Source: an uncultured Atopobiaceae bacterium (GTDB lineage Bacteria; Actinomycetota; Coriobacteriia; Coriobacteriales; Atopobiaceae). Taken from it: DNA of 64,000 nucleotides. Shown in pieces: positions 6,427 to 57,958 of the stretch (positions within the stretch are counted from its first letter, which is position 1; the number at the start of each line of letters is the position of its first letter). The stretch spans positions 51,937 through 115,936 of the forward strand of contig OZ006999.1 in NCBI GenBank assembly GCA_963931285.1, given 5' to 3'. Under the pieces are notes generated by a model. It made no database searches. It saw only the letters and a list, made by a program, of their open reading frames with translations, and was not told the origin of the DNA. A program made the position numbers and the translations under genes.

Positions 6427-6503
6427 GGGCGTGACAATTAGGACAGGTTAAATTGTCACACGCCCGCGGCGTGACAATTTAACCTGTCCTAATTGTCACG
6501 CCC
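6427..6503. repeat. REP-like doublet, GTGACAATT subfamily
   Basis: GTGACAATTAGGACAGGTTAAATTGTCAC (6431-6459) and its reverse complement (6471-6499), 11-nt spacer. Confidence 0.9.
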
Positions 6504-6680
6504 GAATTAAGGGAAAGCGGCGTGTGGATTGCCCCTGTGTTTCGTGTGTACGGCTGATTACGCCCGAGGTTCGATGCCGTTACACTTCGTGGGCTCGATT
6601 TGCACAGAGGTGTTTCTCGCACGTATTCTCTCTTCCGGAACTTTCGTCGCGGCCGCGGCCGCAGGAGAGGGGAGAATCTC

Positions 6681-8036
6681 ATGACGTATTCCGAGAAGAT
6701 CATCGCCGAGCTCGAGGCCCGCTATCCCGAGCAGGCCGAGTTCATCCAGGCGGCAAAGGAGGTCCTCGAGACCCTGCAGCCCGCGCTCGACGCCCACCCC
6801 GAGTACGAGGAGAACGCCCTTCTCGAGCGCCTCGTCGAGCCCGAGCGCGTGGTCATGTTCCGCGTGCCGTGGGTCGACGACGAGGGCAAGGTCCAGGTCA
6901 ACCGCGGCTACCGCGTGGAGTTCAACTCCGCCATCGGCCCCTACAAGGGCGGCCTGCGCTTCAACCCCACCGTCACCGTGGGCATGCTCAAGTTCCTCGG
7001 CTTCGAGCAGATCTTCAAGAACAGCCTGACCACGCTGCCCATGGGCGGCGGCAAGGGCGGCTCCGACTTCGACCCCAAGGGCAAGTCCAACCGCGAGGTC
7101 ATGGCCTTCTGCCAGTCCTTCATGACCGAGCTCTTCCGCCACATCGGTCCCAACACCGACGTCCCCGCCGGTGACCTGGGCGTCGGTGGCCGCGAGGTCG
7201 CGTACATGTTCGGCCAGTACAAGCGCCTCAAGAACGAGTGGACCGGCGTCCTCACGGGCAAGGGCCTCACCTTCGGCGGCTCGCTCGCCCGCACCGAGGC
7301 CACCGGCTACGGCCTGGTCTACTTCGTCGACGAGTACCTCAAGAGCGTCGGCGACTCCTTCGAGGGCAAGAAGGTCGTCGTCCACGGCTCCGGCAACGTG
7401 GCCATCTACGCCATCCAGAAGGTCTCGCAGCTCGGCGGTACCGTCGTTGCCTGCTCCGACACCAAGGGCTGGGTCGAGGACCCCGATGGCATCGACTATC
7501 AGGTCCTCGAGCACATCTACAACAAGAAGCGCTCCGGCCACGACCAGGGCGTGAGCCTCGCGATGTACGTCGACGAGCGCCCTGGCGCCACCTGGCACGA
7601 GGGCGACGGCTGCGGCGTCTGGCAGCTCCCCTGCGACATCGCGCTGCCCTGCGCCCGCGAGAACACCCTGCACCTCGAGGACGCCAAGGCGCTCGTGGCA
7701 AACGGCTGCAAGGTCGTCGGCGAGGGCGCGAACATGCCCACCACGCCCGACGCCACCGCCTACCTCATGGAGAACGGCGTTGCCTTCATGCCCGGCAAGG
7801 CTGCCAACGCCGGCGGCGTGCTCGTCTCCGGCCTCGAGATGAGCCAGAACGCCGAGCACCTTTCCTGGACGTTCGAGGAGGTCGACGGCAAGCTCGAGAC
7901 CCTCATGCGCGGCATGTTCCACAACGTGGACGACACCGCCCGCGAGTACGGCCAGGAGGGCAACTTCGTGATGGGCGCCAACATCGCCGGTTTCCTCAAG
8001 GTCGCCGAGGCCATGATGGCCCAGGGCGTCTGCTAG
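6681..8036 (+). CDS. gdhA: NADP-specific glutamate dehydrogenase
   Basis: [55 protein letters not shown]. Confidence 0.97.
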
Positions 8037-8062
8037 CAGGCGAGAAGAACCTTCAGCTTGAC

Positions 8063-8096
8063 GGCCGCCTCGGAGCTCCTGGGCTCCGGGGCGGCT
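8063..8096 (+). terminator. GC-rich hairpin after gdhA
   Basis: GGCCGCCTCGGAGC / GCTCCGGGGCGGCT stem. Confidence 0.6.
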
Positions 8097-8118
8097 TGCT
8101 GTGTTCGGGCGGCCTTGG

Positions 8119-8306
8119 GCGTTGTGTACACTCGTCGGCGATGTGTACACTGCCTTTGCGGTTCTTCTCGGTAAAAGCGCAGGTAGACGGCCTGGCGAGA
8201 AGTGCGCACAACGCCGAGAAGTGCGCACAACGCCGAGAAGTGCGCACACCGCCGAGAAGTGCGCACACCGCCGCGGCGTGTACACAACGCCGAGAAGTGC
8301 GCACAC
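8119..8306. repeat. Inverted-repeat element with 19-bp periodic motifs
   Basis: Left: GCG(T/A)TGTGTACACT x2 (8119, 8138); right: six 19-bp units of CGCCGAGAAGTGCGCACA(A/C) type from 8193. Confidence 0.85.
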
Positions 8307-8318
8307 CGCTGCCTGCCT

Positions 8319-8464
8319 GGTGCCGGAATCCGTTCATTTGCGTACTGGCGACACGCATATGACGGAAATCCGGCACCCAGACACGCATATGGCCAAAATC
8401 CGGCACCAAAACACGCATTCGGCGGAAATCCGGCACCGTGCGCAGGTGGCGGAAATCCGGCACC
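8319..8464. repeat. Inverted-repeat element with 30-bp periodic ACACGCAT..GGAAATCCGGCACC motifs
   Basis: One reversed motif (8319-8343), then copies at 8351, 8381, 8411 and a partial fourth; related to 63117-63226. Confidence 0.85.
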
Positions 8465-55734: not shown

Positions 55735-55816
55735 TCTCACGCTCACGTTCACGGAGCCCCGGGCGAGCAACTCGTCCGGGGCTTTCTACAAATAACGTCG
55801 AACGAACGGAGTTCGA

Positions 55817-56434
55817 ATGCACCAGCCCACCAACATCCCGCTCATCCCCTACGTCGTCGAGCAGACGCCGCGCGGCGAGCGCAGCTACGACATCTACTCG
55901 CGCCTGCTCAACGACCGCATCGTGTTTCTCGGCGAGGAGGTCACGCGCGACTCCGCCAACCTCGTGATCGCGCAGCTCCTCCACCTCGAGAGCCAGGACC
56001 CCGACAAGGACATCTCGCTCTACATCGACTCGCCCGGCGGCGATGTCTACGCGGGCCTGGGCATCATCGACACGATGAACTTCATCAAGCCCGACGTCTC
56101 CACCATCTGCGTGGGCATGGCCGCCTCCATGGGTGCGGCCATCCTCGCCTGCGGCGCCAAGGGCAAGCGCCTCGCGCTTCCCAACTCGATGGTCCTTATC
56201 CACCAGCCGAGCTCGGGCGTCTCCGGCCAGCAGACCGACATCCAGATCGTCGCGGACGAGACCCGCTGGATCCGCCAGCGCCTCAACGAGATCCTCGCGG
56301 AGGCCACCGGCCAGCCCATCGAGAAGATCAACGCCGATACCGAGCGCGACAACTACATGCGCGCCTCCGAGGCCTGCGCCTACGGCCTCGTCGACAAGGT
56401 CATCTCCTCCCGCGTCGAGCAGAGCCAGGAGTAG
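55817..56434 (+). CDS. clpP: ATP-dependent Clp protease proteolytic subunit
   Basis: [30 protein letters not shown]. Confidence 0.98.
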
Positions 56435-56437
56435 CGC

Positions 56438-57757
56438 ATGGCCACGAACGACACCTTCGGCGGCGCCGGGTTTGGCAACGAGATGCGCTGCTCCTTCTGC
56501 GGCAAGACCCGCAGCCAGGTGAGCAAGCTCATCGCCGGCCCCGGCGGCGTCTACATCTGCGACGAGTGCGTCCACGCGTGCTCCGACATGATCGACGAGG
56601 TGGACCGTCCCGACCTCGAGGACGAGGAGCTTGACGAGGAGGAGGGCGGCCTGCCCATCAAGAACCTCCCCACGCCTCACGAGATCTACGACGAGCTCTC
56701 CCAGTACGTTATGGGCCAGGAGCAGGCCAAGCGCGCGATGAGCGTGGCCGTCTACAACCACTATCGCCGCATCCTCTCCGGCAACGACGAGGTCGAGGAG
56801 GGCACCGAGGAGGTCGAGATCGCCAAGAGCAACATCTTGCTGCTCGGCCCCACCGGAACCGGCAAGACGCTGCTCGCGCAGACGCTCGCCCGTTTCCTCG
56901 AGGTGCCCTTCGCCATCGCCGACGCCACCACCCTCACCGAGGCCGGCTACGTCGGCGAGGACGTTGAGAACATCCTGCTCAAGCTCATCACCGCTGCCGA
57001 CGGCGACGTCGAGCGCGCGCAGGTGGGCATCGTCTACGTTGACGAGATCGACAAGATCGCGCGCAAGGCGGAGAACCTCTCCATCACGCGTGACGTCTCC
57101 GGCGAGGGCGTGCAGCAGGCGCTCCTCAAGATTCTCGAGGGAACGGAGGCCAGCGTTCCGCCCCAGGGCGGCCGCAAGCACCCCCAGCAGGAGCTCATCC
57201 GCATCGACACGACCAACATCCTGTTTATCTGCGGCGGCGCCTTCGTCGGGCTGGACAAGATCGTCGCGGACCGCATCGGCAAGAAGGGCATCGGCTTCAA
57301 CGCCGAGGTCGGCCACAACGCCGAGAAGGACGAGGACTACCTCATGGGCCAGGTCATGCCGCAGGACCTGCACAAGTTCGGCATGATTCCCGAGTTCCTC
57401 GGCCGCATCCCGGTGATCACCGCCACGCGCGAGCTCACCGAGGACGACCTCGTGTCCATCCTCACGCAGCCGCGCAACGCCCTGGTCAAGCAGTATCGTC
57501 GCATGTTCGAGCTCGAGGGCGTGGAGCTGGAGTTCGAGGACGATGCGCTCGTCGAGATCGCGCGCCAGGCGCTCGACCGCGGCACCGGCGCCCGAGGCCT
57601 GCGTGCCATCTGCGAGGCCACGCTGCAGGACACGATGTTCGACCTGCCGAGCAACCTCGACATCACCAAGGTGGTCGTGACCAAGGAGAGCGTCGGTGGC
57701 GGCGAGTCGCCGCACCTGATCACCAAGTCCCACGGCAAGCACCGCATCGCGGGGTAG
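56438..57757 (+). CDS. clpX: Clp protease ATP-binding subunit ClpX
   Basis: CSFCGK..ICDEC zinc finger, [29 protein letters not shown] loop. Confidence 0.98.
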
Positions 57758-57807
57758 CCTGACCGCAAGACGCAAGGGGGGGCGTCGTCCACTCCGGACG
57801 GCGCCTC

Positions 57808-57921
57808 TGTCATTTGGGGACGTGTTTTTTCGTGCAGACCGTTTGGGACAGGCCTACGAATTATTCACGTCCAAGACCTGTCCCAAACGGTCTGCACGAA
57901 AAAACACGTCCCCAAATGACA
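57808..57921. repeat. Long REPIN/MITE-like hairpin with perfect 45-bp arms
   Basis: TGTCATTTGGGGACGTG..GGGACAGG (57808-57852), 24-nt spacer, exact reverse complement (57877-57921). Confidence 0.92.
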
Positions 57922-57932
57922 TAAAAAGTATG

Positions 57933-57958
57933 GTAATCGGGGACTGTCCCCAATTTAC
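57933..57958. repeat. REP-like palindrome overlapping the GT8 stop codon
   Basis: GTAATCGGGGACTGTCCCCAATTTAC. Confidence 0.8.

Follow-up and report, generated by a model that had tools for sequence, protein, structure and literature searches.

Repetitive extragenic palindromic (REP) sequences and their associated tyrosine transposases (RAYTs) are, to our knowledge, understood almost solely from Proteobacteria, whose enzyme recognizes a GTAG tag located at the hairpin foot. The best-described examples are reportedly the REP sequences and bacterial interspersed mosaic elements (BIMEs) of Escherichia coli with their RayT (YafM) and the REP doublets forming hairpins (REPINs) of Pseudomonas fluorescens SBW25 with their RAYT, which are said to go back to work by Nunvar in 2010, Bertels and Rainey in 2011 and Ton-Hoang in 2012. 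IS608 TnpA and E. coli TnpA-REP serve as the model for hairpin binding on single-stranded DNA, cutting through a 5'-phosphotyrosine link and rejoining. Here, we analyzed a stretch of 64,000 nucleotides (nt) of contig OZ006999.1 (the whole stretch is referred to below as the window; 61 to 70% G+C) from an uncultured chicken-gut Atopobiaceae bacterium that is Olsenella/Thermophilibacter-like. The window carries a family of short palindromic elements with a common hairpin tip, 17 elements in total and ~20 units in 64 kb when density is counted. These elements are in all likelihood nonautonomous REP/REPIN-type repeats served by the branch of Y1 transposases of the HUH (histidine-hydrophobic-histidine) class that is known as TIRYT (terminal inverted repeats associated with tyrosine transposases), or TnpA-REP-like subclass 2.1. 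They add a lineage-level member to the TIRYT/RAYT repeats rather than founding a class of their own. Their architecture, in which the tip is constant and the arms are free, is clear, and the re-use of insertion sites is notable.

Di Nocera, De Gregorio and Rocco (2013; PMC3733652) gave the names TIRYT and TIRtron to RayT-like genes with terminal inverted repeats. Many of the flanking repeats share the motif GGGGWSAS, and in a few species they form moderately abundant repeat families; ORF 1152 of Stenotrophomonas maltophilia K279a and ORF 1552 of Koribacter versatilis are examples (PMC3733652). The GTAG and CGTC REP superfamilies have a conserved tetranucleotide at one end of the stem-loop (PMC3733652). 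Most TIRYTs were later placed in subclass 2.1, with a C-terminal helix-turn-helix (HTH) domain of the Bac_DnaA_C, HTH_23 or HTH_28 type, and in that survey nothing resembling a REP was found in the vicinity of the subclass 2.1 genes (Quentin et al. 2018; PMC6006769). The sequence GGGGACAG matches GGGGWSAS in dispersed and gene-flanking copies of our family alike, and the element thus belongs to a described kind. The copies with three G's (GGGACAG) and the GGGGACGG variant fit the consensus only in part, and the latter, a common variant, lies outside it. As in the TIRYTs, a RayT-like Y1 gene lies, in other lineages, between inverted repeats at a similar repeat-to-gene distance, the flanking repeat is in some genomes also a dispersed family with dimers, and the protein is longer than a classical RAYT, with a C-terminal tail that may be HTH-like (below-threshold matches here). 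In contrast to the hosts of the TIRYT papers, a few Proteobacteria and Acidobacteria, the present host is a gut actinobacterium with a dense population of repeats, and in contrast to terminal inverted repeats, the motif here tips a self-complementary hairpin whose arms vary freely. A literature search with the letters of the motif gave nothing relevant, and we found no published description of the motif as a hairpin tip with free stems or of its density in gut Actinomycetota, Bacteroidales and Clostridia.

All loci named in an initial annotation of the window were present at their places, including the doublets, the hybrids and the 45-bp-arm form, of which a half copy also occurs (Table 1). 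Scanning both strands for G[GT]GACAG[AT]CCC returned 15 matches compared to 0.30 expected from shuffled sequences (largest shuffle, 2), and a perfect or near-perfect palindrome of 23 to 41 nt was centered on each of them, with arms that were A+T-rich and differed from locus to locus. All 13 window hairpins with a perfect stem of at least 11 bp carried the core at the center, and the remaining ones had unique loops on stems no longer than 10 bp. The hexamer GGACAG, which had been proposed as the uniting core, is by itself not enriched in the window (37 observed versus 41.65 expected). What unites the elements is described more accurately by the hairpin tip GGG(G)ACAG[A/T/G]. This center had also been described as asymmetric, which is true of the commonest tip form, ACAGA, but not of the T form, GGGAC-A-GTCCC, a full palindrome in itself whose asymmetry is limited to the central base.

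As in REPs, the elements are short, dispersed and mostly extragenic palindromes, nearly all at gene ends or in intergenic regions. As in REPINs, inverted doublets at 6429, 20541, 48103 and 50026 fold into one long hairpin each, with perfect arms of 33 to 36 bp. At least eight arm types occur with one tip within the 64 kb, and the arm families are internally identical, as in the three GATGAAAA copies and the GATTCAAAA arm repeated in several copies. A GTAG or CGTC tag was not seen at either foot of the window hairpins, whose arms start with TGATTC, TGATGA, TGATCC, CTGTCAATT, TACGAAG, etc. The GTGACAATT doublets and the long form have only GGACAGG in common with the other elements; their putative membership rests on this short motif and on ACAGG-tipped relatives elsewhere, which lie beside transposase genes in four other loci (L120, L128, L180 and L203) and also include the repeat of the related lineage L229.

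The exact 21-mer AAAAGGGGACAGACCCCTTTT was scanned in species-representative genomes (596 Gb; ~1 chance match expected), and at least 117 genome stretches matched. Among the matches listed, the hosts were Atopobiaceae/Olsenella/Thermophilibacter, Bacteroidales, several Clostridia, Acidobacteriota, Beta- and Gammaproteobacteria, Aminicenantes and a Bacillaceae isolate, and the tip of this palindromic repeat family is identical across phyla. The outer arms, on the other hand, differed by lineage, with TGATTC or TGATCC in Atopobiaceae, ATGATAC or ATAGTAC in Bacteroidales, and GGCAA or GAGGGA in Clostridia. There were 71 different six-base outer arms among 139 copies of the 21-mer in the matches listed, and at least 5 further bases paired perfectly in 55 of these copies. 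Inverted doublets with the same core were found in most of these phyla; in Bacteroidales, all four combinations of two arm alleles occurred, and the units were imperfect alone and perfect as doublets. When the matches listed and the window were taken together, 133 of 235 long perfect hairpins carried this tip. The tips of the other long hairpins were nearly all unique (three recurred twice), which indicates one special family, not one loop among many.

The initial annotation had assigned the elements to the REP/REPIN kind, spread by HUH Y1 transposases acting from outside the window. Searching all open reading frames (ORFs) of at least 60 aa in the window by phmmer with two RayT-like queries indeed revealed no Y1 gene. 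A phmmer probe of the 117 stretches with E. coli RayT, which is too distant a query, gave nothing significant (E values of about 1.5 to 6). The two weakest matches adjoined doublets and proved to be homologous 252-aa proteins (loci L041 and L075), which scored 58.7 bits against Pfam PF01797 (Y1_Tnp; cutoff, 23; family range, 52 to 62 bits) and 64 bits against NCBIfam REP_Tyr_transpos, under its cutoff of 80. Both loci showed the layout of doublet, 252-aa Y1_Tnp gene and inverted copy. The order in L041 was plus-strand hairpin, minus-strand hairpin, gene and minus-strand hairpin, with the tip GGGGACAGACCCC throughout. Relatives with 44 to 48% identity at the same syntenic place were flanked by GGGGACAGGCCCC or GGGACAGGCAC hairpins (in detail, by GAGGGAAAAAGGGGACAGGCCCCTTTTTCCCTC and its inverse or by the GGGACAGGCAC version). 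In the gut Clostridia loci L041, L075, L120 and L123, the RayT-like gene lay directly downstream of a Peptidase_M18 gene (44 to 100% protein identity). Such a fixed place fits a vertically inherited, domesticated single-copy gene.

A metagenome scan with the family alignment yielded 80 loci of 35 to 68% identity, or 84 together with the four earlier loci. In the 200 nt upstream of the gene, 52 of 83 loci had the tip GGGAC[AG]G on the plus strand (wrong strand, 7 of 83); in the 200 nt downstream, 41 of 75 had it on the minus strand (wrong strand, 12 of 75). Inside the transposase genes, the tip occurred 10 times in 64 kb. The arms of the gene-flanking hairpins were different in every lineage and the tip was constant, with the A and G forms swapping many times over the protein tree. 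The order of plus-strand repeat, gene and minus-strand repeat was thus found in other lineages (L041, L075, L120, L123 and most of L126 to L205), and inverted same-tip hairpins around a single-copy Y1 gene are the defining REP-RAYT arrangement. In alignment A2, NHVH and RYI..NP were invariant, corresponding to the HUH motif and the catalytic tyrosine, and the proteins, of ~250 aa, extended roughly 110 residues past the Y1 core. The family comprises 36,240 clusters at 50% identity (E up to 0.001), and some sources label its members "REP element-mobilizing transposase RayT" (COG1943). These data agree with the initial assignment to HUH transposases but refine it, in that the enzyme would belong to the HTH-bearing TIRYT branch, subclass 2.1, instead of the classical GTAG-REP RAYTs, and the conserved motif lies at the tip of the hairpin instead of the foot. 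When 4,439 ORFs of the matched loci were clustered all against all, no neighbor gene recurred, the largest cluster apparently being an ABC-transporter ATPase family, and a scan of these loci for the GIY-YIG motif gave one match, which was unrelated.

Among close strains, a site in the window may hold its repeat, be empty or hold a replacement. The lineage L210 has the same response-regulator protein (~95% identity in coding DNA and 91% across the aligned stretch) and lacks the 73-bp doublet 20541-20613; at 21607-21637, it has 16 nt (CGGCGCAGACGGCGAG) instead of the repeat. The hairpin at 19741 has an A tip in the window and a T tip in L210 and is absent from L229, L231 and L233. The hairpin at 19798 is decayed in L210, and L229 and L231 have the different-armed repeat GTGCAGGATGGACAGGCACTTTTGCAC at the same place, the site ahead of the response-regulator ribosome-binding site (RBS) thus holding two different repeats or none among close lineages. 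After the same response-regulator stop, the metagenome run X11 contained a different repeat, TCAAAGAGGGGTCTATCCCCAATTGGATTAT, and the runs X3 and X4 contained short or empty forms. Five states were observed at this site (window 20536-20625) in close lineages, including L210, L229, L231 and L233. The initial annotation had named positions fixed across strains as evidence that would speak against mobile repeats. The positions were not fixed but showed the presence/absence differences of REPs, with empty sites in L210 and other repeats in X11, L229, L231 and L233.

Orthologues of the ABC ATPase encoded at 21607 exhibited three tail states, LMGGADGEKDG without a repeat, DEKGQSLFIT and VQRGQAPLHG. 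The repeat-free tail occurs in O. uli and Thermophilibacter as well as in relatives further away and is therefore the ancestral state. The DNA of the VQRGQAPLHG form is GTGCAAAGGGGACAGGCGCCTTTGCAC, a repeat of another type that is read in the same frame, starts one base downstream of the first and differs from the GATGAAAA-type repeat at four compensating pairs of arm positions. The presence of different repeats at one point suggests repeat-for-repeat replacement rather than random insertion. Other copies were common to diverged strains and differed by point changes alone, and strain look-ups of the 25273 and 57931 regions showed no variation. The difference at 42240 is a 135-nt insertion or deletion (indel) and not a clean presence/absence test. 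In L217 (96% identical), the whole convergent spacer of ~135 nt (42131-42267), with the repeat and two further hairpins, is missing, and the gene upstream of it encodes 305 rather than 287 aa. A 16-bp tandem duplication (CGTGACAATTAGGAC) was observed in L211 (2203-2260), within the left unit of a GTGACAATT doublet.

These observations can be combined in a model based on the known enzymes. The transposase, normally one vertically inherited gene per genome, would bind the folded single strand and read the tip GGGGAC(A/G)G, and the remaining stem would need only to pair. The strand would be cut beside the hairpin through a 5'-phosphotyrosine link and then rejoined, and both singles and inverted doublets would be excised and copied to new places. 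The tip is probably the recognition site of the protein, and this genome presumably carries the enzyme elsewhere. As the arms would not be read, any arm variant could found its own subfamily, which would explain the large number of arm types with one tip in the window. Copies would survive where they are least harmful, at a stop codon or just past it, in the spacer of convergent genes and, occasionally, as an in-frame part of a protein tail. The hybrid-arm doublets at 48103 and 50026, which consist of imperfect units in perfect doublets, and the allele combinations in Bacteroidales suggest that the doublet is a replicating unit and that its halves are exchanged at the tip. A further reading, which we put forward only tentatively, is that an ancient, mostly vertical RayT-like lineage reads a tip of 8 to 13 nt and exchanges repeats at the same genomic points. 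The tip would then be kept letter for letter in at least six phyla with free stems, and the copies would not be scattered randomly. The five states after one stop codon, the two in-frame repeats at one ABC ATPase codon and the hybrid-arm units point to such an exchange. If true, it would be a site-bound swapping mode of HUH action, undescribed for REPs.

Comparison with other systems showed both shared and different features. Like the REP-RAYT systems of E. coli and SBW25, the family consists of short extragenic palindromes that occur as singles and inverted doublets, are nonautonomous and would be moved in trans, with a single-copy HUH-Y1 gene between inverted copies and a sign of vertical inheritance in its Peptidase_M18 neighbor. 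However, classical REPs carry GTAG (or CGTC) at the hairpin foot and conserve their stems within each genome, whereas here the foot tag is absent, the tip is conserved and many stem families occur together. The IS200/IS605 insertion sequences (IS608 and ISDra2) share the PF01797 catalytic fold, the presumed strand-specific action on single-stranded DNA and the lack of target duplication. These insertion sequences, however, bring along their own tnpA (and tnpB), enclosed by two unlike end hairpins, and insert beside a fixed target of 4 to 5 nt; the present family showed no carried gene and no fixed target word. The Rickettsia palindromic elements are similar in that in-frame palindromes are tolerated in genes, here as the DEKGQSLFIT or VQRGQAPLHG tail of the ABC ATPase. 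These elements of 100 to 150 bp, however, have no known transposase partner and no sequence in common with this family.

Several results weigh against the assignment to the TIRYT branch. No Y1 gene was found in the fetched Atopobiaceae/Olsenella/Thermophilibacter loci (about one-third of the 117 stretches, 8 kb or less each), just as none was found in the window. Protein searches and the search of representative genomes reached only Clostridia-type relatives, which were A+T-rich or mid-GC, none having the composition of the 66% GC host, and a scan of viral contigs gave six loci, none of them useful. The C-terminal HTH was detected only below curated cutoffs (HTH_23/HTH_28 in P0135, E values of 0.002 to 0.004; HTH_7 in P0191, 0.003), and the C-terminal tail of the L041 protein had no HTH match. 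The GTGACAATT and long forms are tied to the family by 7 to 9 shared bases. Furthermore, the repeat replaces 9 to 16 nt at two sites instead of being a clean insertion, comparison of filled and empty sites showed no target duplication and no consistent flanking target word, and the doublets at 48103 and 50026 had no empty site in four metagenomes. The negative search for an enzyme gene in these Atopobiaceae loci would also suit relic repeats, whose ancestral RayT-like enzyme was lost and whose strain differences arose by homologous recombination, gene conversion between copies, deletion or strain mixing rather than by ongoing transposition. So would the several copies that stand at the same place in diverged strains with point changes only (19741, with its A and T tips, and the decayed 19798), and the fact that differences are often replacements or larger indels. 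The sample of Atopobiaceae DNA is small, however, the arm families are internally identical, and at least three repeat types occur at one site among lineages ~5 to 12% apart in the neighboring protein. We therefore regard relic repeats as unlikely, though the most serious of the alternatives.

The placement of the copies raises another explanation. In other genomes, 77 of 99 single copies were no more than 80 nt away from where an ORF of at least 120 aa ends, and the GGGGACAGA strand was the sense strand of the upstream gene in 38 cases versus 15. Hairpins selected as terminators, mRNA-end stabilizers or attenuators, alike by function rather than by copying, would show such a distribution, and the AAAAGGGG...CCCCTTTT types outline a two-way terminator. 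The orientation preference could come from strand-specific insertion or from selection at the RNA level. An identical tip of 13 to 21 nt across phyla, however, cannot come from convergence, and selection for function does not account for the same hairpins around a transposase gene in fixed orientation, for inverted doublets or for copies within coding sequence (21607 and 30561) and upstream of genes (19741 and 19798). Many arm types have no T run 3' of the stem (24274, 43919, 52078 and the GTGACAATT doublets), the AAAAGGGG...CCCCTTTT types only resembling an intrinsic terminator, and Rfam covariance models run against the window matched no family at the hairpins, one tRNA alone reaching the gathering score. 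It is thus very unlikely that the family arose in this way, although copies may have a secondary use as terminators. The perfect palindrome of the T form with its one-base center resembles a dimeric site, as if a double-stranded-DNA-binding host protein (a global regulator or a restriction-modification enzyme) read GGGAC-N-GTCCC. Such binding sites are highly improbable here, as the commonest form, ACAGA, is asymmetric, operators keep their half-sites instead of a tip between long flanks that vary freely, most copies are at 3' ends with positions polymorphic between strains, and the association with Y1 genes needs no such protein. Least credible of all are miniature inverted-repeat transposable elements (MITEs), which a DDE-type insertion sequence would mobilize in double-stranded form via their terminal inverted repeats. 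The elements are indeed short, palindromic and dispersed, and another MITE-like element is present at 24331-24475, but MITEs keep their ends and vary in the middle, whereas here the middle is kept and the ends are free; target-site duplications were absent, and no DDE transposase with these ends was found in ~1 Mb of loci. On reading alone, attC sites were ruled out, with no cassette array or integrase seen. SECIS (selenocysteine insertion sequence) elements 3' of UGA codons were discarded as well, the large number of genes concerned making them implausible. REP/REPIN-type repeats of the TIRYT branch remain the best account of the family.

The positions and surroundings of the elements in the window are collected in Table 1.

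Table 1. Tip-sharing repeat elements in the 64-kb window
Element	Position	Strand	Setting or structure
GTGACAATT-family inverted doublet (REPIN-like)	6429-6501	.	GCGTGACAATTAGGACAGGTTAAATTGTCACAC, 7-nt spacer, inverted copy
Single hairpin TGATGAAAAGGGACAGTCCCTTTTCATCA (GATGAAAA arm type)	13183-13211	+	Begins 2 nt past TAG stop of carB (carbamoyl phosphate synthase [CPSase] large chain)
Single hairpin ATGATTCAAAAGGGGACAGACCCCTTTTGAATCAT (GATTCAAAA arm type)	19741-19775	+	Upstream of response-regulator gene
Single hairpin TACGGAGGGACAGTCCCTTCGTA (TACG[G/A]AG arm type)	19798-19820	+	Between TATGAT box and response-regulator RBS
GTGACAATT-family inverted doublet, 33-bp perfect arms	20541-20613	.	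Just 3' of response-regulator stop
GATGAAAA hairpin	21607-21637	+	In ABC ATPase tail, translated in frame as DEKGQSLFIT
Single hairpin TCTGTCAATTGGGGACAGTCCCCAATTGACAGA (CAATTGGGG arm type)	24274-24306	+	Right arm holds TGA stop of histidine-kinase ORF
GATTCAAAA hairpin, tip mutated to GGTGACAGACCCC	24489-24521	+	
GATTCAAAA hairpin	25273-25303	+	Between two convergent stops (PemK/MazF-like gene and 184-aa gene)
Long-form half copy (one arm)	30561-30607	-	Within ORF 30049-31797
GATGAAAA hairpin	42240-42272	-	Between convergent genes
Single hairpin CTTGACAAAGGGACTGTCCCCTTGTCAAG (TTGACAA arm type)	43919-43947	-	Divergent intergenic region
Hybrid-arm inverted doublet (CAATT one side, TTTTG other)	48103-48179	.	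35-bp perfect hairpin between two ABC exporter genes
Second hybrid-arm inverted doublet	50026-50103	.	36-bp perfect hairpin from TGA stop of second ABC exporter gene
Single hairpin, 18-bp arms, TGTGAATGTTACGAAGGG TCTGT CCCTTCGTAACATTCACA (TACG[G/A]AG type)	52078-52118	-	Between convergent genes
Long form, 45-bp inverted arms, GGGACAGG in each	57806-57921	.	Outer ends resemble CAATTGGGG family
Degenerate CAATTGGGG-type hairpin	57931-57959	-	At glycosyltransferase gene stop

Elements lie directly 3' of stop codons at 13183, 20541, 25273 and 50026, between convergent genes at 25273, 42240, 52078 and 57931, and upstream of a gene at 19741 and 19798. They are translated as protein at three places (21607, the right arm of 24274, and 30561). 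Many arms start with TGA, and the stop codon is thus supplied or overlapped by the arm. Single copies from 13183 to 25303 had GGACAG on the plus strand and those from 42240 to 57959 had it on the minus strand, regardless of the direction of the neighboring gene. A replication origin between the two groups was considered for this switch and dropped, as no dnaA or origin genes are present in the window. The MITE-like element mentioned above, of ~140 bp, has inverted GAGGGTATGTACAC and GTGTACATACCCTC motifs doubled at both ends and sits between two hairpin repeats, adjoining the PemK/MazF-type toxin pair. At the left end of the window, the region 740-6335 encodes a primase/VapE-like protein (835 aa) and a tyrosine integrase (476 aa), and the contigs of other strains continue at 6337 into tRNA-like sequence (GTAGTTCAATGGTAGAAC...). 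This region looks like an element integrated at a tRNA gene that is present only in some strains. In four chicken-gut metagenomes, the summed contig depth at 19744-19815, 20536-20607 and 21616-21687 was 10 to 100 times that of the flanks, and Logan contigs terminated at the repeats. Metagenome assemblies of these bacteria are fragmented by the repeats.

The window and the gathered loci indicate that the large HTH-bearing branch, which was surveyed in 2018 without REP-like partners, does have hairpin partners, and that these can reach high numbers in Actinomycetota, Bacteroidales and Clostridia of the gut. What is kept in them is the tip and not the stem, which would give a simple, testable recognition rule. 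The tip can serve as a search key for annotating repeats that fragment metagenome assemblies and alter protein tails, and the family offers a natural system for following the turnover of repeats between strains.

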